Shown here: in pieces, positions 4,618-26,145 of the stretch
How the letters are laid out: every line of letters starts with the position of its first letter
Position numbering within the stretch: position 1 is the stretch's first letter
IMG/VR virus record: IMGVR_UViG_3300029183_000042
Location: 1 to 26,145 of that record
Reading direction: 5' to 3' (one strand)
Length of the DNA: 26,145 nucleotides
DNA from: a virus
Lineage: Duplodnaviria; Caudoviricetes
Program-made: the position numbers and the translations under genes
Notes under the pieces: generated by a model
Database searches by the model: none
Told to the model about the DNA's origin: nothing
Seen by the model: only the letters and a program-made list of their open reading frames with translations

Positions 4618-5361
4618 TCAATCGGTTTTCAGTGATACATTGGAGAAGTGACGCTCAATGAACTCGTCGGCTTTGGTGCCGTCGATAACGGTCGTCAGTT
4701 TTGAAAATGCGTTGACGTGGTCATCAAACGAATGAAGCTCGTCACCACACTTCAAAAATACATACGCCGCCGAATCCGGAAGGTCGAGCGTCACCTGTCG
4801 ACATCCGGAACGCTCTGACATCGACCAAAGCCGAGTGTGAAGCGTGAGATCGATATTTTTAATTCCCTTGTCGGTCTCGTAGAGATCACCGTCAAGAATA
4901 GAACTCCTAAAAGCCGTCGCAAAAACGTGATTCGGAAAATGAGATAAGCGTCCTGTCGGAGTATCATACTCATAAAATCCGCGAATCTTCAGAGATCCGA
5001 CCGACTCATCAGAAAATACAGTCGCGACAAAGTCGATGAAACCCTCAGAAAGCAGGTCGTCGGAGCCGATTTGAATCACGACATCGCCAAACGTGACGGC
5101 GTGCTGCAGTCCTTCATTCCTTTTTTTGCCGAGATTCTCGTTAGACTGAAGAATCAGCTTCAACCCAAGTTCTTCGGCGAGCTCACGGTCTTCATCGTCG
5201 GTCCCGATAGCATGAATAACCAGATCATACCCTTTCGGTTTTAAGCCGGCCAAGTGAGACAGCGAAAGCCGGTCGAGTTTTCGCCGGCGTTCTGAGTGGT
5301 TCGCGAGATTAAGAGCCGTCGTGACGACAATTTTGAGTTTCGATTTTTTGCTCTTAGCCAT
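4618..5361 (-). CDS. GT-A fold glycosyltransferase (GT2-like)
   Basis: N-terminal beta strand KIVVTT, NENLGKKRNEGL motif, and DVVIQIGSDDLL (DxD-like metal-binding motif). Confidence 0.75.
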   Translation of the reverse strand: MAKSKKSKLKIVVTTALNLANHSERRRKLDRLSLSHLAGLKPKGYDLVIHAIGTDDEDRELAEELGLKLILQSNENLGKKRNEGLQHAVTFGDVVIQIGSDDLLSEGFIDFVATVFSDESVGSLKIRGFYEYDTPTGRLSHFPNHVFATAFRSSILDGDLYETDKGIKNIDLTLHTRLWSMSERSGCRQVTLDLPDSAAYVFLKCGDELHSFDDHVNAFSKLTTVIDGTKADEFIERHFSNVSLKTD

Positions 5362-5437
5362 GGTATTTAGGTTTTGGCCGTGGCCGCGTTAAGACATCCT
5401 TGTCGTCGATGTCGTTGGTGATGATCTGATTATCCAT
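5354..5437 (-). CDS. Possible 27-aa peptide MDNQIITNDIDDKDVLTRPRPKPKYHG
   Basis: Fills the gap between 5442 and 5361 and overlaps the glycosyltransferase start; read manually. Confidence 0.35.
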   Translation of the reverse strand: MDNQIITNDIDDKDVLTRPRPKPKYHG

Positions 5438-12187: not shown

Positions 12188-13539
12188 CTCTTTCTTGATT
12201 TACGTCTCATTAATGGCGCAAGTTTGTCAATATGACAAATGAAGTAACGTATTGCATCGACACCGTGGTCGTTCTCTTTGACGGGAGCTTCTTTCTTGCC
12301 TGGATTCATCCAAATATACGACTCGACCTCGTCTTCCGTGCAAGTCGGAACCGGTTTATCTCTGACGAGAAGCTCCTGATCTATCTCGACGAGTGCTGAT
12401 TTGAACAGAAAAAGACGGGGTTTCCCGTCCTCCTGAACTGCAAGGCGACGCTGAACCGCTTCGATACCTCTCTTTACAGATTTATACGCCGGAATGTTCG
12501 GAATACCGTTTTGTGATAGCGTGAGACGATCTTCGGCGTCAGTGTCGCATATCGTCGTGATTATCTTCTCACCAATCGAAAGCGACTTAATCTGAGCGGC
12601 ATGTTGCGCGACGGTTCGGCCTGTCTTGTAGATCTCGCGATACATGTATGCACGGCGATCGCCGTCGAGTGCCCACCACTGACAAACGAACGGATTCACA
12701 AGACCAAAGTCGATCACTCGGAAACGTGGCCAATCTCCCGGGATGTCGAAAGCCGGTATAACATGGATCGTTTTGTCAAACGTCGGATAGACAGCACCTT
12801 CAGCGGCAACCCATCGTCCGTATCTGAGCCGCTCTTTCGTGACACCTGTTAGCGCATCAAGCCGGCGAAGTGATCGCTTCCCTTGAACGGTCCACTCGTT
12901 ATCGATGTGGTCGAATAAGACGGGGTTGTCCTGGTGCCGACCTTCATGAAACGAGAGTTTCCCCTCTCGCTCTCTCTGCTTTATCCAGTGTGACGGTGGT
13001 CCCGGGTTAGCATCTCCAAGAACGAGCCCTCCAAACGGAAGATTCCCGGCTCGCCCCGTCGCTCGCGTCGTGAGCGTTTCCCAGTCGAGCAAGGCGATTT
13101 CCTCGGCCTGTGGAACGTAGATGACGTCGTATTCGGCTGAGAGTACCTTACCGGGCTTATCGAGTCCCCCGAGCACCAATCGGGATCCATTTGGGTACTG
13201 GTATGCAGACGGAGTCTCGCCGCCGATTTTTCTAACTGGGGTTTTGTCTTGTTGGAATTCTCCTTCATCGTCATACGCTCCGAGAACGTGTCTATCGAGT
13301 GTAACTACTGCCGATTCGTAAAGAGATCGAAGTGATTTTCGACACATGAGCGCTCTTACCTTCGGATATGTCGAGAGAAGCATGTTGACCTTCTCAAGAG
13401 CTACTCGTGTCTTACCTGTTTCAGCCGGCCCGCCTATAACTTGTTCCGGTGACATGTCGAACCAGAACTCACGTGCACCGCCATGGGCAACAAATCGCCT
13501 CTCACTCGTTGAGCTTTTTACGATCCGGATCTCAGGCAT
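12184..13539 (-). CDS. terL: Terminase large subunit
   Basis: Walker A GGPAETGKT, Walker B-like YDVIYVPQAEE, ANPGPPSHWIK, nuclease motifs IDFG and NDHGVDAIRY. Confidence 0.95.
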   Translation of the reverse strand: MPEIRIVKSSTSERRFVAHGGAREFWFDMSPEQVIGGPAETGKTRVALEKVNMLLSTYPKVRALMCRKSLRSLYESAVVTLDRHVLGAYDDEGEFQQDKTPVRKIGGETPSAYQYPNGSRLVLGGLDKPGKVLSAEYDVIYVPQAEEIALLDWETLTTRATGRAGNLPFGGLVLGDANPGPPSHWIKQREREGKLSFHEGRHQDNPVLFDHIDNEWTVQGKRSLRRLDALTGVTKERLRYGRWVAAEGAVYPTFDKTIHVIPAFDIPGDWPRFRVIDFGLVNPFVCQWWALDGDRRAYMYREIYKTGRTVAQHAAQIKSLSIGEKIITTICDTDAEDRLTLSQNGIPNIPAYKSVKRGIEAVQRRLAVQEDGKPRLFLFKSALVEIDQELLVRDKPVPTCTEDEVESYIWMNPGKKEAPVKENDHGVDAIRYFICHIDKLAPLMRRKSRKR

Positions 13540-13670
13540 TACTTAAAGAAGTCGTTGAAATAGAAGAGATAAAATGCCAGTGCTACGACAGCGGCAATCA
13601 TGATGCAGCCACAAGGCTGTTGTTGTCGGCTTACATCGTCGTCGTGTAGTTCTTTCTTGAAGTTCCACAT
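13539..13670 (-). CDS. 43-aa single-pass membrane protein (holin-like candidate)
   Basis: MWNFKKELHDDDVSRQQQPCGCIMIAAVVALAFYLFYFNDFFK; abuts the amidase stop and overlaps the terL start (TAATG). Confidence 0.55.
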   Translation of the reverse strand: MWNFKKELHDDDVSRQQQPCGCIMIAAVVALAFYLFYFNDFFK

Positions 13671-14111
13671 TTACCTAGCATCTTTTAAAAGACCCTCGAT
13701 AACATATTGAATGATGCCAATGTCGAAAGCCTTGCCTGGACACTCTGTAGCACGATGATCACGGTGGCAAGATATGTCCGCAAGTGAGAGATGATACTGG
13801 TTCATTACAGGAATGAAGAATTCACGAGCGGCATGAACAACCATTCCGAGCGGCGGCGGCTCGTTCGTGAAATCGCCAACAAAACAAAACCCTACAGCGA
13901 CAGAGTTCTTGCCGGGGCAGTGTGCGCCGTTCTTGTTCAGCGGACGACCGTAGCGGATTTTGTATTCTGGTCCGACGAGCTCGATGCCTGCATGATAACC
14001 GATATCCGACCATCCTCTTTCTTCGATGTGAAATTTTCGGATCTTCTCCCAATTGTCGGCGCTTGTGTCAATCCCAGCGCTATGGTGTAATATGATCTCT
14101 TTGACTGTCAT
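13671..14111 (-). CDS. N-acetylmuramoyl-L-alanine amidase (Amidase_2/PGRP, T7 lysozyme-like) endolysin
   Basis: IILHHSA, RGWSDIGYH, GAHC and HRD...TECPG motifs. Start placed at MTVKE. Confidence 0.9.
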   Translation of the reverse strand: MTVKEIILHHSAGIDTSADNWEKIRKFHIEERGWSDIGYHAGIELVGPEYKIRYGRPLNKNGAHCPGKNSVAVGFCFVGDFTNEPPPLGMVVHAAREFFIPVMNQYHLSLADISCHRDHRATECPGKAFDIGIIQYVIEGLLKDAR

Positions 14112-14186
14112 TTGGGTTTTGGCGGTGGTGTTTTGAACATTAATAACAAAACGATCACGAGTAGAATTAAACCCCAAACAATTGGT

Positions 14187-14567
14187 TCATCCAGCATTGT
14201 CTTCTCCGGTTATTTCTCGAAATAGAAGACCGCCTCTTTCGCAATGATCGACCGTCTGTCTTGCCCAGCCTGAATCGATCTTTTTCAGCTTTTGAATATA
14301 CCTCTCGGTTGGCTTGTACCACTCGTGAGTTGGTATCAGGTCTTGGTCGACCATGTACATTGATGAAGTCGCGCGAGATCCACACACAGGACAATCAATG
14401 AACATTGGAGTGTTTCCTTCATCACGGTCGATCGTCACAATTTGATGACTCTTCTCGTCGGCCGGCTTGACTACAATGCGGCCGTCTTCGACTCGTGCAA
14501 TGGCATAACTGCAGGTATAAACGTTTATCCGATTGTTTTCAGTCGTTTTTTTCATGATTTCACTCAT
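14187..14567 (-). CDS. Hypothetical protein with a CPVC motif
   Basis: 126-aa ORF in the operon orientation; possible Zn ligands CPVC...H...HC. Confidence 0.6.
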   Translation of the reverse strand: MSEIMKKTTENNRINVYTCSYAIARVEDGRIVVKPADEKSHQIVTIDRDEGNTPMFIDCPVCGSRATSSMYMVDQDLIPTHEWYKPTERYIQKLKKIDSGWARQTVDHCERGGLLFREITGEDNAG

Positions 14568-14784
14568 TTACCGCCGCGTCTGGGGCGGGTGGATTTTCCA
14601 AGATATCGTTTACCCTCTCAAGTAATTCTGCGTGATACTCAATTGCCCTGCCTCCTGAATTATTACGCATTGCCTCATTCATTGCGCTAATAATTTCACG
14701 GACTATTTTTTCACGCGACTGCACAGCAACTGCAAGCATATCCTGCGCTGAAAAGCTTTCGGGAATATATTTATTCACTTCCAT
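14560..14784 (-). CDS. Hypothetical protein
   Basis: 74 aa from MEVNK, tightly packed between its neighbours. Confidence 0.55.
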   Translation of the reverse strand: MEVNKYIPESFSAQDMLAVAVQSREKIVREIISAMNEAMRNNSGGRAIEYHAELLERVNDILENPPAPDAAVNE

Positions 14785-14792
14785 ACCCACCC

Positions 14793-15035
14793 CTAGCTGG
14801 ATTGGCTTGTTTGTTCTGAAAAAGAAGGATGTTCGGCAAAGCAAATACTTATGCCTATATAGCTGACTACATACTCTTCATAGTCGTCAGTCATATTTAA
14901 ACTCACTTGTGTATCACTAGGCATGATACCTGGTGTTTTCTTGATCGGCACATGAATAACCTTGCCAATGAATAAATTATCCATTGCTGGCACCTCCAGG
15001 TTATCCATTGGCCCGCCTTGCAGTCTTATCTTCAT
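14793..15035 (-). CDS. Hypothetical protein
   Basis: 80 aa with an N-terminal L.GGP.D motif common in small phage proteins. Confidence 0.6.
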   Translation of the reverse strand: MKIRLQGGPMDNLEVPAMDNLFIGKVIHVPIKKTPGIMPSDTQVSLNMTDDYEEYVVSYIGISICFAEHPSFSEQTSQSS

Positions 15036-15045
15036 AGCAAATATT

Positions 15046-15074
15046 ACTTTTGATAATCCTAAATTATCGAAACC
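15046..15074. repeat. 11-7-11 palindromic site A
   Basis: acttttgataa-tcctaaa-ttatcgaaacc. Confidence 0.8.
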
Positions 15075-15294
15075 TATCTTGATTACAATCTGCTACAAAC
15101 TCCTCATTAAGCTCAATTGCATACAAATTATACAACTCACCATCACTACAATCCTTGAGTTCGTGAGGTATTCTGTGCGGGTTCATTTCACATATCTCAA
15201 TGATTGCTCTTTCCCTATCCCTCATCGACAAAGGAACTCTTGCCTTGTCTAACGAAGAAAAGATTAGCCGTGTAATAAAGTTTCTTTTTGCCAT
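15064..15294 (-). CDS. Hypothetical cassette protein
   Basis: 76 aa; its stop codon lies inside an arm of site A. Confidence 0.6.
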   Translation of the reverse strand: MAKRNFITRLIFSSLDKARVPLSMRDRERAIIEICEMNPHRIPHELKDCSDGELYNLYAIELNEEFVADCNQDRFR

Positions 15295-15311
15295 GTTGAT
15301 GTCTCAACTTT

Positions 15312-15340
15312 ACTTTCGATAACGCTATTGTGGCGTAAGT
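15312..15340. repeat. 11-7-11 site B (right arm degenerate)
   Basis: actttcgataa-cgctatt-gtggcgtaagt. Confidence 0.75.
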
Positions 15341-15591
15341 TATTCTTCTATCATACTAATTGATGCTAAAAAGAAAGACTCTTCATCTCCGCGCTTCTCG
15401 TATCGGATTAAAGGAATGTCAGCATCAGACCAACCCCACTCAGTCATAATAAATGGTTTTCCATCGCCTATTGGACTAAGCCCATCCATGTCAGTTGATG
15501 TGCCAAACACCTTTGATGTATCGTGCAATCTGGAATAGATTTCTCGATATAGAATCTGATCTATTCTTCTCCATTTTACATGCGATTCCAT
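15340..15591 (-). CDS. Hypothetical cassette protein
   Basis: 83 aa between sites B and C. Confidence 0.65.
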   Translation of the reverse strand: MESHVKWRRIDQILYREIYSRLHDTSKVFGTSTDMDGLSPIGDGKPFIMTEWGWSDADIPLIRYEKRGDEESFFLASISMIEE

Positions 15592-15611
15592 TTCATTAAC
15601 CCCTTAATTTC

Positions 15612-15640
15612 ACTTTCCAAATCGCTATTTTATCGAAAGT
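15612..15640. repeat. 11-7-11 site C (left arm degenerate)
   Basis: actttccaaat-cgctatt-ttatcgaaagt; same spacer as site B. Confidence 0.75.
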
Positions 15641-15644
15641 TATT

Positions 15645-16601
15645 TTATCCTGCTATGCTCACTTCATTGAACATTGGATTATCATTTTTTATCCGCTTCA
15701 ATGACATTTGAGCATAACTAGGATTAAGTTCAATACCTATGTAATTTCTGTTTTTCGCCAGTGCTACAAGCCCAGTAGTTCCTGCCCCATTAAACGGATC
15801 GAGAACCGTATCACCTTCCTTGCTTCCTGCTAATATGCAGGGATCAATTAGCTTCTTTGGAAATACAGCGAAATGAGAACCAGCATATTGAGCAGGATTG
15901 ATAGACCAAACACTTCTTTTATTCTTCGTGTCTCTTGCCACCATATTGTGCAAGTTTTTCTTTGTCCTTCCTAAGTCGGGATCCTCCAACGAATGCTTAT
16001 TGATTGAGGTAAGAGGCCTGTTTCTACCTTTCGTTCTGAACTCAATGTCTGTTACTGGTTCGGCAATACTCTGTGAATCGAAATAATATTTCTTTGACTT
16101 ACTAAACAGAAAGATATACTCATGCGCTTTTGTACACCTGTCTGTAACGCTCTCAGGCATTGGGTTAGGCTTGTGCCAAATGATGTCCTGCCTCAAATAC
16201 CAACCATCAGCCTGCAGCGCAAAAGCTACACGCCACGGTATGCCAACTAAATCTTTAGGTTTTAAGCCAATCACACCACCGACAGAGAATCTCGCTTCTC
16301 TGTTTTTTAGTCCGTCATTATAACCGTTCTGTTTAGTTCTATTTGTGGCTTTGCCGTTGTAGCTATCCCCAAGATTAAGCCACAACGTTCCATCTTTCCT
16401 TAATACCCGCCGAACCTCCCTGAAAACATTTACCAGGTTTTCGACAAACTCTTCTGGCGTTTCCTCAAATCCTAACTGCCCGTCAACACCATAGTCACGC
16501 AGGCCCCAATAAGGCGGAGAAGTTACACACGTTTGCACAGACTCATCCTCGAGAGTCTTTAGTACTTCCAAACAATCTCCTATGTGAATCACAGCACTCA
16601 T
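15645..16601 (-). CDS. Orphan DNA amino-methyltransferase (N4C/N6A, beta class)
   Basis: Catalytic TSPPY motif precedes the SAM-binding VLDPFNGAGTT; IIWHKPNPMPES and HFAVFP motifs are also present. Confidence 0.92.
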   Translation of the reverse strand: MSAVIHIGDCLEVLKTLEDESVQTCVTSPPYWGLRDYGVDGQLGFEETPEEFVENLVNVFREVRRVLRKDGTLWLNLGDSYNGKATNRTKQNGYNDGLKNREARFSVGGVIGLKPKDLVGIPWRVAFALQADGWYLRQDIIWHKPNPMPESVTDRCTKAHEYIFLFSKSKKYYFDSQSIAEPVTDIEFRTKGRNRPLTSINKHSLEDPDLGRTKKNLHNMVARDTKNKRSVWSINPAQYAGSHFAVFPKKLIDPCILAGSKEGDTVLDPFNGAGTTGLVALAKNRNYIGIELNPSYAQMSLKRIKNDNPMFNEVSIAG

Positions 16602-16612
16602 TTTTACATTTT

Positions 16613-16641
16613 ACTTTCGATAAGACAGACTTATCAAAACC
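16613..16641. repeat. 11-7-11 palindromic site D
   Basis: actttcgataa-gacagac-ttatcaaaacc. Confidence 0.8.
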
Positions 16642-16653
16642 TAATTATCTTGC

Positions 16654-16992
16654 TTAATCTGCATGCCAAGACCGCTTTTCCGGTCTCGGTTTTAATAGAA
16701 ACTCATCGGGAATACTGTCAGAGAAAAAATCATTTAAGTAACGAATTAGTTTGTTTTTCTCCTCCAGATGCTCACTTATGCGACTATGTATTTCCTCAGG
16801 AACGTCATAGAATGCCCAATTATCGACTGGTGTCAATGACTTAAGAATGTGGTTTCTATTCCTTTTTGAGTAAAGTGGATCGCGTTCATCGATATAACCG
16901 GCTTTTCTGACGAGACTCCATACCTCAGATTCTATCGCTTTTACAGCTTTGATCAAAGTGGAAAGATCCATCCTAATAGCCTCATGTTTCAT
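16654..16992 (-). CDS. Hypothetical protein
   Basis: 112 aa from MKHEAIR, overlapping the end of terS. Confidence 0.55.
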   Translation of the reverse strand: MKHEAIRMDLSTLIKAVKAIESEVWSLVRKAGYIDERDPLYSKRNRNHILKSLTPVDNWAFYDVPEEIHSRISEHLEEKNKLIRYLNDFFSDSIPDEFLLKPRPEKRSWHAD

Positions 16993-17542
16993 TGTTGTTT
17001 TCTGTGTCGTCGTCTGGTTTATAGTTGAGCCACTCGGCGGCGAGCATTTCAGCATCCATAATCTTCACGATCACGGGTTCATTCGAATCCCCGGCGTGCT
17101 TGATGATTTCACGTCGTCCGAAGTCGTCATTACGGCGACGTTCTAAAAACCACGCGCCGGCGTGCCAATCTGGCTTATGATATTCACGAGTCGTTGTCTT
17201 CGATCCGTCCGGATGTTCGATGATCGTCTCTTTCTTGAGATGCTCACCCATCCAAGCCTTCTTGATAGACTTGTTTGCCGACACGACGGCGGAAGAGTCG
17301 CTTCTTTTTACACGGTTGAAGAAGTCCAGGTAGATGGCTTCCTCTGGGTCACGATGTTCTTCGTCGAGAGCGGCCTGTTGCTCACCTCGGTTTCGCCAGC
17401 TAAAGAATGACTGTTTCGATATACCAGCGTCGCGAGCCGCGTCCTCGAATATCGCACCGGACTTGATGTTCTCGACAATGCGGTCGACGAGATCCTGATC
17501 TTCAATTTTAGATCGTCTTCCCATTTTCTTATTCTTGCTCAT
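16982..17542 (-). CDS. terS: Probable terminase small subunit
   Basis: GRRSKI start, HTH (AARDAGISKQSFFSW), and DWHAGAWFLERR...FGR motif typical of TerS-like proteins. Confidence 0.7.
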   Translation of the reverse strand: MSKNKKMGRRSKIEDQDLVDRIVENIKSGAIFEDAARDAGISKQSFFSWRNRGEQQAALDEEHRDPEEAIYLDFFNRVKRSDSSAVVSANKSIKKAWMGEHLKKETIIEHPDGSKTTTREYHKPDWHAGAWFLERRRNDDFGRREIIKHAGDSNEPVIVKIMDAEMLAAEWLNYKPDDDTENNNET

Positions 17543-18132
17543 TGCAGTTCCCTCTTAGCAGCTTCATATGCGTCGTTTAGGATATAAAGCTTTTCGCCGA
17601 CGGCTATCTTAACCAGATGCCGATATCTAGCTTTTACGACATCAAATCCTTCACCTGGATCCACTCCTAAGATAGCCCTCCAAGATGACGGCGTCGCAGA
17701 CTCAGGAAGAGCTCTAAATCCTGCAAACGCACTTTTGAGAATGTCGGAACATGCCCACCGGTCGAGTCCGCGTATTGCTTGTATCGAGAGCCAAATAGCG
17801 TGAATGTTGTCGACGAGCCTGTACCAGTTGTCACACGCGATCACTTTGATCTCGTTATGCAAAGTGAAGTACACGGCGACACCGACATCAGTTGGTTTTT
17901 TGTAGCTCGCTCTTGGTTGGCCGTCTTGCCTCAGTGGAATATTTGACGATATGATGACGTTTTTTGCTCCAAGCTTCGCGAGCTCGTCATATATACCATC
18001 GCGAGCGGCCGCAAATTTTGACTTGCCGTCATAGCTGCGCCTTGTTCTGCTGAACCTGGAATGCTTGGGGTACCGTGTCCGTTTGATATGCTGCGGCCAC
18101 GAAAGCGGGTATGCGCTCACGTTGTCGTTCAT
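17539..18132 (-). CDS. Phage DnaJ-like protein with a degenerate C-terminal J domain
   Basis: AYPLSWP...VIISSNIPLR.DG...GVAVYF...IACD.W...DN...RGLDRW...AFAGF.ALP, followed by WRAILGV...KARYR...LNDAYEAA; no HPD. Confidence 0.75.
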   Translation of the reverse strand: MNDNVSAYPLSWPQHIKRTRYPKHSRFSRTRRSYDGKSKFAAARDGIYDELAKLGAKNVIISSNIPLRQDGQPRASYKKPTDVGVAVYFTLHNEIKVIACDNWYRLVDNIHAIWLSIQAIRGLDRWACSDILKSAFAGFRALPESATPSSWRAILGVDPGEGFDVVKARYRHLVKIAVGEKLYILNDAYEAAKRELQ

Positions 18133-18218
18133 TTTGTCGTATGTAGCTAGTTGAAAGGCCGCTTTCGTAGTGTTTAGCCGGCCTTGAAATTATTATTAGT
18201 AAACATTTACTAACGAAG

Positions 18219-18551
18219 TTAATTCTTCGGAGACACCTTGATCTTCTGCCCGAGAATAAGCTTACGCGTCGAGTCGTCGAAAATCCAGTTGGCGAATATC
18301 TCTCCGGATTCGTCGAGTGTGTACTGGTTCGTTACTTCGTAGACACCGGAGCCGTTGTCGGTAATGGCGGTGACGCTCGTCGTGCCGCTTGGCTCTATGA
18401 CTTCAAGTGTGAGATTTGCGGCTTGACCAGTGACGCCAGTCCCGCTCGAATCTTTGAGGACACACGAGAACGGGAACTTCGATCCCTGCAGAATTCCTTT
18501 TGCCGGTGTTATGTCCTGGTAGCCTGTACGGTCGTTGGATGCTCTACTCAT
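18219..18551 (-). CDS. Small beta-rich (Ig-like) protein
   Basis: TDNGSGVYE and Thr/Gly-rich strands; start overlaps the LamG gene stop. Confidence 0.55.
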   Translation of the reverse strand: MSRASNDRTGYQDITPAKGILQGSKFPFSCVLKDSSGTGVTGQAANLTLEVIEPSGTTSVTAITDNGSGVYEVTNQYTLDESGEIFANWIFDDSTRKLILGQKIKVSPKN

Positions 18552-19303
18552 GATGTCGTAAGTGTGTATTGTGCTATCGTGTTGGTTTCGAGCGTATACT
18601 CTTCGTTGTTGAGCGTGTGATAGGATACACTCTTGCGCTCATTATAAAGTTCTGTGATTTCAGCGGCCGAGAGCGCTTTGCTAAAGACCCGACCGTTGTC
18701 GAGTACGCCATTAAAGCCGCCTGATGAGAAGAAGCCGTTTTGTTCGAAGTCTTGAGCACTTTGAATATCTTCGGTTCCAAATACTGTGCCCGTCGAGCTC
18801 GCGACAACTCCGTTTACATATATCGTTGCTGTATTTGCGGACCGGTCAATAACGATCACGATCTGATACCAGTTGCCATCGGCGTCGATAACGTTCGCGT
18901 TCGAGTCGAGAATCGTTCTTGATGAGCCGTTTGAGATGTTGAAGCGTATGCCTTTCGTGACGGTCTGGTTGTTCACGACGATGCAATATCCTTCCTCTGT
19001 CGTGCTCGATGCGCCGAACATGATGATCCCTCGAAACTGCGACGGCAGAGATGGGAATTTGGCCCACAGTTCGATCGTTCGAGACGCCGTTCCGAGTTGC
19101 AGCGTTGCAGCGTTTGCATTGAGCCGGCGAAGTACGCCGTCGTTTGCATCGAACTGAACAGCCTTTCCGATTATGCCGTCAACGCTGCTGATGTCATCGC
19201 CATTTACGACAGTAAGATCATTGACGCCGTGATCATCGGTTCTATCGTCATTTCCGGTTTCCTCGTACGACCAGGAAGAGATTAAGCTTGAAATGAGTGC
19301 CAT
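18548..19303 (-). CDS. LamG/concanavalin A-like domain protein
   Basis: LISSWSYEE, GIIGKAVQFD, TIELWAK, WYQIVIV, IYVNG and FNGVLDNGRVFSKALSAAEITELYN motifs. Confidence 0.85.
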   Translation of the reverse strand: MALISSLISSWSYEETGNDDRTDDHGVNDLTVVNGDDISSVDGIIGKAVQFDANDGVLRRLNANAATLQLGTASRTIELWAKFPSLPSQFRGIIMFGASSTTEEGYCIVVNNQTVTKGIRFNISNGSSRTILDSNANVIDADGNWYQIVIVIDRSANTATIYVNGVVASSTGTVFGTEDIQSAQDFEQNGFFSSGGFNGVLDNGRVFSKALSAAEITELYNERKSVSYHTLNNEEYTLETNTIAQYTLTTS

Positions 19304-22663: not shown

Positions 22664-22680
22664 GAGTCGTTTCTAATTTT

Positions 22681-22711
22681 GTTTTCGATAAGGCATAGAA
22701 TTATCGAAACC
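22681..22711. repeat. Palindromic site E (same arms as A-D, 9-nt spacer)
   Basis: gttttcgataa-ggcatagaa-ttatcgaaacc. Confidence 0.7.
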
Positions 22712-22738
22712 GATTAATTCTATGAAAACGGTTTCAGG

Positions 22739-22966: not shown

Positions 22967-22991
22967 TTATTTATCTGGTAAGGGGCGGTTT

Positions 22992-23210
22992 CTAGTCTTC
23001 AGGATTGCATTTGTCATATATCTTCTGACACATCTTGTCATAGGCTTTGTGAATCGCCTTAATTTTCCTTTCAGAAAGATTATCAATATTACCTTCGATT
23101 AAGTCCGAAAGGTACACGCGACCCCGCCCAGCATCTAGCATACACCATGCAACGTAATACACGAACTGCGTAGGTGTGAGGTCACTAATATCTTTTTCAA
23201 GAAGAGTCAT
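22992..23210 (-). CDS. Hypothetical cassette protein (72 aa)
   Basis: Unit 2 of the array. Confidence 0.7.
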   Translation of the reverse strand: MTLLEKDISDLTPTQFVYYVAWCMLDAGRGRVYLSDLIEGNIDNLSERKIKAIHKAYDKMCQKIYDKCNPED

Positions 23211-23248
23211 TTGATTGTTTTGTGTATTTATTGATAGGGGGCGGTTTC

Positions 23249-23485
23249 TCAGAATTTTATCGATTCCTCAGAAAGTAGCCCTTCTGTATATTCAGGCTGA
23301 TACTTTTCGTGGTTTGGAAGTTTCTGTTCAAGCTCATGTATCCAGTCGGAAATCATGGTTTTGACATAATCCCGCTGTGTCCAGTCTCCGTCAAAACCTT
23401 TCTCTGTACGTATTTGTAGTTCCCTAAGGAATGCTAGGTCCTTTCCGGCTTGATCTTCTGTATAGGTAGTTTCTTTGTATTTCAT
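23249..23485 (-). CDS. Hypothetical cassette protein (78 aa)
   Basis: Unit 3 of the array. Confidence 0.7.
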   Translation of the reverse strand: MKYKETTYTEDQAGKDLAFLRELQIRTEKGFDGDWTQRDYVKTMISDWIHELEQKLPNHEKYQPEYTEGLLSEESIKF

Positions 23486-23510
23486 TTTATCTCTGTTGTT
23501 GGGGCGGTTT

Positions 23511-23729
23511 CTAGTCTTTATTGATCACGTCACGGTGCCAATATCGACTATTGGGCATTACTCCATCTAAAGCTAATTGCACGTCGTAAAGCGCTTGCCG
23601 ATAACCGCCGGCATACCCTTCTGAAGCTAGGCCACGGGCAAACATGGAATTAGGTTTTGCGTTGCTTGCAATATCTTTATTTACTTCATCAAGTACCTTT
23701 TTGAGATCGCGTCTTATTCCTTTAGCCAT
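23511..23729 (-). CDS. Hypothetical cassette protein (72 aa)
   Basis: Unit 4 of the array. Start placed at MAKGIRR, downstream of the repeat; contains LASEGYAGGY. Confidence 0.7.
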   Translation of the reverse strand: MAKGIRRDLKKVLDEVNKDIASNAKPNSMFARGLASEGYAGGYRQALYDVQLALDGVMPNSRYWHRDVINKD

Positions 23730-23773
23730 TGCAATTTGTGTTTTTATTTTCCAGCACAACCGGGGGCGGTTTC

Positions 23774-23863
23774 TTACAAGGAGAGCCACAGTGCATACAG
23801 AACGTAACCGAGCACATAGCCAGCAGCAATGGGAGTAAGTCTATCAGATTTTCCCTTTGTCAT
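23774..23863 (-). CDS. Possible 29-aa membrane peptide
   Basis: MTKGKSDRLTPIAAGYVLGYVLYALWLSL; its TAA overlaps the 12-bp repeat as in the other units. Confidence 0.45.
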   Translation of the reverse strand: MTKGKSDRLTPIAAGYVLGYVLYALWLSL

Positions 23864-25047: not shown

Positions 25048-25100
25048 TGTTCTGTCGTCGTGTTTTGTTTGTGTGAACTCTATAGTGTACGCTTCACTGA

Positions 25101-25120
25101 TGTAAAGTTTCGGCTTTACA
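25101..25120. promoter_or_regulatory. Operator-like palindrome TGTAAAG-N6-CTTTACA
   Basis: tgtaaag-tttcgg-ctttaca, intergenic. Confidence 0.7.
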
Positions 25121-25134
25121 CAAATTATGCCGCG

Positions 25135-26035: not shown

Positions 26036-26107
26036 CGTGTCGTTTTTCTAAGTGTGTGAACGAGCGGCATTATCTGATCCGCTTTCTATAATATAAGACG
26101 CCGCTAA

Positions 26108-26127
26108 TGTAAAGTTTCAACTTTACA
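26108..26127. promoter_or_regulatory. Operator-like palindrome TGTAAAG-N6-CTTTACA
   Basis: tgtaaag-tttcaa-ctttaca, intergenic. Confidence 0.7.
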
Positions 26128-26145
26128 TAAAATATTAATAATGAG

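Follow-up and report, generated by a model that had tools for sequence, protein, structure and literature searches.

Five palindromes in a fragment of a tailed-phage genome (the window, that is, the whole stretch of 26,145 bp that was analysed) are best explained as lox-type core sites of a Cre-like tyrosine recombinase, an assignment that is somewhat favored rather than firm. The enzyme would come from the missing part of this phage genome or from a co-infecting phage such as the one termed G005, and the likely role of the sites would be that of fixed joints for the gain or exchange of small genes. This explanation is supported by the anatomy of the sites, by their position at gene junctions, by the association of the same arms with recombinase genes elsewhere, and by phage G005, which combines such sites with a Cre-like enzyme and has one cargo gene in common with the window. 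The 9-bp spacer of one site (S5), the lack of a recombinase in the window and the lack of a joint or an empty site in the contigs were counted against it, as were the absence of recombinase genes near the motif at 51 viral loci, the lack of identical spacers between the window and G005, the merely weak junction look-alikes in a third phage (G310), the single known context of one cargo gene (83 aa) and the incomplete sites around another (76 aa) in G005.

Genomic setting

Gene calls and profile searches placed every gene of the window on the minus strand, and searches against Pfam and PHROGs identified tape measure, head, portal, terminase and amidase genes. An assembly of 35,703 bp included the whole window and extended past its tail side. 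Region 13500-18500 was letter-identical in the two runs that hold the window phage. Therefore, the sites are not an assembly error, with the caveat that both runs are possibly the source of the window. No joints, empty sites or variant letters were found across 13500-18500 in the contigs of these two runs, contigs being a form of data from which rare forms drop out; the excised circles implied by the original prediction did not appear in these contigs either.

Searches of the 26-kb window with Pfam, PHROGs and three profiles built for the purpose detected no tyrosine recombinase. The G005 enzyme had 162 relatives, and none of the 120 that were listed was on a contig of 35,703 bp, the size of the longer assembly of the window phage. 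A capsid scan of IMG/VR and a strict motif scan were both empty and thus yielded no close relatives of the window phage, whose terminase showed at most 44% identity among 12 phage records listed out of 446. The search against Rfam gave no match.

Anatomy and placement of the sites

The sites and the genes between them are as follows.

S1: 15044..15076, strand., 13-7-13 palindrome, spacer TCCTAAA (+)
76-aa ORF: 15064..15294, minus strand, between S2 and S1
S2: 15310..15342, strand., spacer CGCTATT, outer arm perfect, arm towards the 83-aa ORF decayed
83-aa ORF: 15340..15591, minus strand, small phage-type protein family with a confident fold
S3: 15610..15642, strand., spacer CGCTATT, outer arm perfect, arm towards the 83-aa ORF decayed
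N6/N4 DNA methyltransferase, 318 aa: 15645..16601, minus strand, between S4 and S3
S4: 16611..16643, strand., spacer GACAGAC (+), with an overlapping match to a sigma-70-like promoter in the coding strand
S5: 22679..22713, strand., both cores perfect, 9-bp spacer GGCATAGAA, closing a run of small ORFs

Four sites with 7-bp spacers, at 15046, 15312, 15612 and 16613, had been predicted originally as the limits of units of 266, 300 and 1001 bp, the last holding a DNA methyltransferase. All of this was reproduced: the four sites were well above chance by matrix score, the unit lengths were as given, and the methyltransferase was recognized by PF01555 (E 8e-55). The motif scan of the whole window added S5, which had been missed. 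Sites were scored with a matrix built on arms found in other genomes, with block-shuffled windows as the null; S1-S4 scored 19.9-32.0 bits, and the shuffled windows gave 0.08 hits at 16 bits or more and 0.01 at 20 bits or more.

S1 and S4 each have two 13-bp inverted arms, a 7-bp spacer and one core mismatch. The proposed consensus fitted six of the eight arms of S1-S4, but the right arm of S2 departed from it at 4 of the 9 core positions and the left arm of S3 at 3 of 9. S2 and S3 are identical in 25 of 33 letters and share their spacer, an identity with a chance probability of about 0.001, while the spacers of S1, S2/S3, S4 and S5 all differ. The common orientation claimed for the sites was thus confirmed in the outer arm letters and in the way the sites are placed with respect to the genes, but not in the spacers, which define orientation and compatibility and differ except between S2 and S3. 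The spacer of S1 recurred once, in the viral fragment L008 (1 among 62 collected sites); because this match was borderline and the gene orientation was opposite, it was not counted as support.

The spacer centres were non-coding at all five sites, although only 11% of the window is non-coding by the list of 40 genes. The placement predicted for each site, between a stop codon and the next ATG, needs a correction at S1 and S2, where the upstream arm overlaps the stop codon, and one arm of S1 covers the final codons and the stop of the 76-aa ORF. Each site ends shortly ahead of a start codon. The flanking genes are all co-directional, and none is a divergent recombinase or helper gene. Predicted folds of the sites ranged from -3.3 to -9.4 kcal/mol, S2 and S3 barely folding as RNA (-3.3 and -4.9 kcal/mol). 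One terminator-like match overlapped S2, but on the non-coding strand, and a terminator reading was dropped since the folds were too weak.

The position before start codons would also be expected of operators, at which a dimeric protein (the Cre-like enzyme or an unseen repressor) would control the following gene without any recombinational movement of genes. This explanation is unlikely, although several observations agree with it. The promoter match that S4 overlaps, TTGATA-18-TAAAAT, is placed for a leaderless methyltransferase transcript; freely varying spacers, the 9-bp one included, suit binding without strand exchange; and resolution sites are known to hold resolvase-controlled promoters (PMC7157771). 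However, promoter matches in 14500-17200 were at the level of chance (6 found against 6.6 expected), and S4 was the only site to have one. Nor do operators account for identical spacers in S2 and S3 with only the inward arms decayed.

The Fold and Atlas searches named no function. The 83-aa protein belongs to a wide family (72 representatives at E≤0.001). No second genomic context of its gene was found despite the width of the family, the alignment of which (35 rows) contained no stretch fit for scanning. For the 76-aa protein, the protein search and the search of phage records returned no relative besides one in G005.

The arm motif adjoins tyrosine recombinase genes in other genomes

The exact core with a 6-7-bp spacer was found at 115 GTDB loci and, with a 6-9-bp spacer, at 36 viral loci, nearly always as a single copy. 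A matrix scan of 25 metagenome loci with the motif revealed no multi-site arrays. Only one of the viral loci picked by the motif (L194, the record of G005) had three strong 7-bp-spacer sites. Two of the loci (L019 and L036) proved to be one contig, with two sites with 8-9-bp spacers, and three whole records (G006, G007 and G008) had one strong site each.

A tyrosine recombinase gene lay within 400 bp of the exact arm motif in 33 of the 80 GTDB loci with flanks, against 3 of 127 control positions; this count is partly circular, as the recombinase profiles were built from 18 such genes, but Pfam or NCBIfam named those genes independently. The motif was upstream of the gene in every linked case. 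Two classes were distinguished: 22 Xer-like genes, mostly of Anaerolineae and all with 6-bp spacers, and 11 Cre-like genes, 9 of them with 7-bp spacers, so that all nine 7-bp loci were Cre-like. In G001, a full ACTTTCGATAA arm stood immediately ahead of two Cre-like genes. In L048, L061, L081, L087 and L109, the same arm sequence, with a 6-7-bp spacer, was flanked by divergent KfrA_N and integrase genes, the former presumably TnpT. Some of the Cre-like genes face such a divergent KfrA_N gene, an arrangement also described for TnpS/TnpT resolution sites (PMC4337579, PMC7157771).

No recombinase gene was found within 400 bp at any of 51 viral loci picked by the motif, which indicates that phage copies of the site are often not linked to the gene. 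When phage loci were instead collected by relatives of the G005 enzyme, a single site was present just upstream in 5 of 45, against 0 of 73 controls, and also in L263. Considering the linkage at GTDB loci, and since native Cre-type sites typically adjoin the gene (PMC10250229), it is very probable from this sequence comparison that the arms are recognized by a tyrosine recombinase. The core-site interpretation put forward in the original prediction is likewise supported, by these independent genomes and by G005, where such sites surround a Cre-like gene. A spacer of 7 bp is indicative of the Cre-like class rather than XerCD.

The same loci bear on whether the sites could be targets of a host chromosomal Xer-like enzyme in the manner of dif modules, for example, the Anaerolineae recombinase behind the motif. 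Chloroflexota accounted for 57 of the 115 GTDB motif loci (counted by eye from titles), an Xer-like gene was just downstream of the motif in 22 of the 80 loci with flanks, and four genomes tested had only 1-2 motif copies each. Nevertheless, this origin is very unlikely: those sites all have 6-bp spacers, mostly TAATAC/GTATTA, and no window site has 6 bp; G005 has its own Cre-like enzyme; and nothing ties the window phage to Chloroflexota. Relatives of the G005 enzyme (E≤1e-40) turned up in the phylum of G001 (5 of 301 genomes) and the 7-bp motif in its class (8 of 301); no host was assigned from these counts.

Several loci deserve mention in their own right. Anaerolineae genomes (L038-L151, e.g., L044, L046, L071 and L097) have a single palindrome, TTTCGATAA-TAATAC-TTATCGAAA, 28-48 bp upstream of an Xer-like gene of approximately 340 aa, a candidate single-enzyme dif-like system. 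In a provirus (L004:2259-3638), the motif with a 7-bp spacer is directly behind the stop codon of a methyltransferase gene, beside a convergent gene for a Thoeris ThsB-like TIR protein. A Clostridia genome (L107:3270-3420) has five tandem 30-bp near-motif repeats at a distance of 1.6 kb from a perfect copy.

Phage G005 has related sites around a Cre-like gene

The record G005 (54.6 kb) was found by scanning for the arm variant of S1 and S4, and its 198-bp terminal overlap suggests that the genome is probably whole. It contains three 7-bp-spacer sites at gene junctions (48363, 50924 and 52306), which scored 19.4-33.2 bits (null 0.03 at 18 bits or more) and which lie around a gene for a Cre-like protein of 332 aa (L199:11509-12507). 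P1 Cre was the best solved relative of this protein (E 5e-11), and the catalytic residues R171, K198, H279, R282 and Y314 are kept. There is no full site directly ahead of the recombinase gene itself.

The capsid module of G005 is unrelated to that of the window, and only four window ORFs had tblastn hits in G005, that of the 76-aa cargo protein among them. The best DNA match between the two genomes was that of S4 to the third site of G005, here T4 (33/37, E 1.3e-6); the first, here T1, was matched by half of S5. Spacer ends were shared by S5 and T1 (5 letters) and by S4 and T4 (4 letters), with a simulated P of 0.002, and both pairs occur in the same order in the two genomes. A methyltransferase gene follows an S4-type site in both phages, directly in the window and approximately 1.3 kb on in G005. 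No spacer was identical between the window and G005, so that efficient recombination between them would not be expected today under a strict spacer rule. The drifted shared spacers fit common descent of the joints and not present-day exchange between these phages.

Operators, as considered above, do not account for the spacer halves shared with G005. The HTH protein of the window, named in the original prediction as a possible binder, is unlikely to bind the sites because G005 has sites but no tblastn match to this protein at E≤1; none was found in G310 either.

A further question raised with the original prediction was whether homologs of the cassette genes have the same sites in other contexts. 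The 76-aa protein has a 45% identical homolog in G005 (E 2e-13) with different junction surroundings: behind its gene comes the left arm known from the window and then another motif, AGAAACCGCCCC, in place of the right arm. The G005 gene is thus bounded by AGAAACCGCCCC motifs and a half site, not by two full sites. For the 83-aa family no other genomic context was retrieved. Furthermore, G005 has two paralogous small ORFs (64% identical), each right behind a site.

Pieces of G005 were present at 99-100% identity and low depth in all three runs, in two of which the window phage was also found; therefore, the two phages co-occur. Short matches in other contigs to the G005 stretch were not counted as joints. 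A third, partial phage record, G310, encodes a 62% identical enzyme with a shared small gene on the enzyme's other side; its junction look-alikes were weak and below the threshold. In addition, window positions 5357-5425 and G005 positions 44662-44730 share a 23-codon stretch, 74% identical in translation, at a gene junction, which may be an unannotated micro-ORF or a shared remnant.

A second junction motif

The motif AGAAACCGCCCC is repeated in the window.

AGAAACCGCCCC motif, four copies: 22982..23774, minus strand, at 22982, 23238, 23501 and 23763, each before a small ORF

G005 also has four copies (L199:9157-10090), before small ORFs and just ahead of its first full site, and two of them are fused to a lox-like left arm within a 31-bp perfect repeat. 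The order is alike in both phages, in each of which four small ORFs marked by this motif come before the first site. In a search of IMG/VR with a spacing of 236-296 bp, the AGAAACCGCCCC doublet was found in G005 only. The motif appeared in a third context in a contig of run X3 (match at L199:9779-9813), with other flanking genes and without the two-arm form, which indicates that junction motifs here need no full lox site. One X3 contig (L199:9452-9794) runs exactly from repeat to repeat of the 31-bp sequence and may represent a tandem copy or a minicircle.

These observations are what would be expected if the palindromes were passive linkers or relics, that is, once-functional lox sites that, together with AGAAACCGCCCC, offer 12-37 bp of homology for ordinary phage recombination, like the PeSL elements of T4-like phages. 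Such an explanation is rather improbable. Apart from the presence of AGAAACCGCCCC at junctions in both phages and the third contig, it is favored by the 31-38-bp direct repeats at AGAAACCGCCCC junctions of G005, shared gene ends included, by the depth of the repeat-to-repeat X3 contig, 23.6 against 12.1 and 14.2 for its neighbours (approximately twofold, but a weak indication from one contig), and by the PeSL precedent itself (PMC2839356). On the other hand, conserved arms with diverged spacers are the reverse of what homology-driven exchange would give, neither arm core departs by more than one letter at S1, S4 and S5, and the weakly folding sites lack the promoter-plus-GC-stem build of PeSLs.

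Comparison with known systems

By analogy, the sites are most like Cre/lox with heterospecific sites. The 13-bp inverted arms with GATAA beside a short spacer resemble those of Cre/loxP of P1, Dre, Vika and others, the enzyme of G005 is Cre-like, and its relatives have single sites just upstream. Two 13-bp inverted arms around a 6-8-bp spacer, as in Cre/lox, are found in S1 and S4; S2 and S3 have one decayed arm, and the spacer of S5 is 9 bp. As for shared spacers, S2 and S3 match, that of S1 has its single counterpart in L008, and for S4 and S5 the agreement with G005 is limited to the spacer ends. An enzyme of the Cre family with intact catalytic residues was found in G005, and Cre-like genes were found beside the motif in bacteria, but none was found in the window fragment. 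Whereas in described Cre-type systems a single native site adjoins the gene, with an 8-bp spacer as counted for loxP, here there are 3-5 sites per phage at gene junctions, with 7-9-bp spacers, and no enzyme in the window. Mutually different spacers are also used in cassette exchange with heterospecific lox sites (PMC10250229).

The original prediction had compared the sites with Xer/dif. Cre/lox fits instead, given the symmetric arms, the 7-bp spacer and the Cre-type enzyme. The centre of a dif or pdif site is 6 bp. In pdif modules of Acinetobacter plasmids (XerC/XerD), several core sites likewise bound small gene modules that recur elsewhere (PMC9455709), but each site is 28 bp and is served by two host enzymes, XerC and XerD, each with an arm of its own (PMC3025954). 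The window sites differ from this in having symmetric arms, 7- and 9-bp spacers and a phage-borne Cre-like candidate enzyme; of the modules, the 76-aa gene alone recurred, without full sites.

The rst site of Tn4651-type transposons has in common with the present motif, as seen in the other loci, the same arm with a 6-7-bp spacer between divergent KfrA_N and integrase genes; its recombinase TnpS is Cre-related, and the site lies between divergent genes (PMC4337579). However, rst occurs once per element, for cointegrate resolution, and no divergent recombinase/helper pair is present in the window. PeSL cassettes are similar in being repeated intergenic elements at small-ORF modules of variable regions, but they consist of a promoter and stem-loop terminators and are thought to recombine by homology (PMC2839356), whereas the window sites, AT-rich and with two arms, are protein sites whose centres are not conserved.

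A single integron-like array, with three units that would each be cut out and put back through the two sites next to them, had been the central idea of the original prediction and is now hardly credible. As in integrons with attI and attC, single promoterless ORFs lie between the sites and each site is followed by a start codon; the outer arm letters have a consistent polarity. Nevertheless, neighbouring spacers differ for two of the three units, the one shared spacer (S2/S3) goes with decayed inner arms, and no excised or empty form was seen. There was no IntI in the window, and the G005 enzyme had no match to TIGR02249. The sites are simple palindromes of 33-35 bp of a symmetric double-stranded type, not attC-like hairpins with extrahelical bases, as judged from sequence and RNA folds.

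Proposed mechanism

Under the lox-type reading, S2 and S3 look like the scar of a single 300-bp insertion. The 300-bp unit with the 83-aa ORF would have entered one intact site with perfect arms and the spacer CGCTATT, which gave rise to S2 and S3, and the poor inner arms may now lock the unit in place. A shared spacer with perfect outer and poor inner arms would follow from such an entry or from a duplicated site that decayed so that the unit cannot leave.

Exchange of the Cre type requires matching spacers, and two different spacers permit cassette exchange (PMC10250229, PMC11260471). Since the spacers differ, apart from those of S2 and S3 with their poor inner arms, the array would not be able to collapse and the DNA between the sites would not be deleted. 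The S4-S5 stretch contains the terminase small subunit gene, so that different spacers would be selected there. S1, S4 and S5, together with the S2/S3 type, are probably mutually incompatible lox sites and exchange points between phages: each could cross over with same-spacer sites on other phage genomes in a natural form of cassette exchange. The enzyme would be supplied from the unseen part of the window-phage genome or in trans, and the arms may additionally let it repress the downstream gene.

More speculatively, a guild of unrelated phages of one host may share a Cre-like enzyme and spacer-coded lox sites. Small genes, including the methyltransferase gene, would be swapped in register by natural recombinase-mediated cassette exchange, the enzyme would be borrowed in trans by phages such as that of the window, and decayed inner arms would lock captured genes. 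This wider picture is possible but doubtful.

In phage mosaics, small accessory genes change at gene boundaries, which is usually attributed to homologous or illegitimate recombination. If the lox-type reading is true, a dedicated site-specific route would make the 'linker' idea directly testable with one 332-aa protein and eight sites, and a Cre-type enzyme would become available together with a panel of natural 7-bp-spacer sites that are incompatible with one another. Should the sites turn out to be no more than operators or relics, the finding would reduce to a shared regulatory motif. The open literature, searched as main texts and including few subscription papers, yielded no report of multiple natural lox-like sites at phage gene junctions or of this motif; Table S2 of PMC10250229 holds approximately 500 predicted sites and may include this arm.

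Other features of the window

Positions 1-18 of the window are a tag that also occurs at the record ends of G310 and G005, presumably an amplification primer. The tape-measure-like region (212-2169) consists of two ORFs (315 and 303 aa), each with tape-measure matches, and represents a split gene or a frameshift. At 18548-19303, a protein of the laminin-G/concanavalin fold is encoded that is not in the tail module; its weaker Pfam match to a neurotoxin binding domain is explained by the fold that the two have in common. Two copies of the palindrome TGTAAAGTTTC-NN-CTTTACA, 84% alike and both intergenic, are located at 25097-25128 and 26104-26135 and may be an operator or an origin element.
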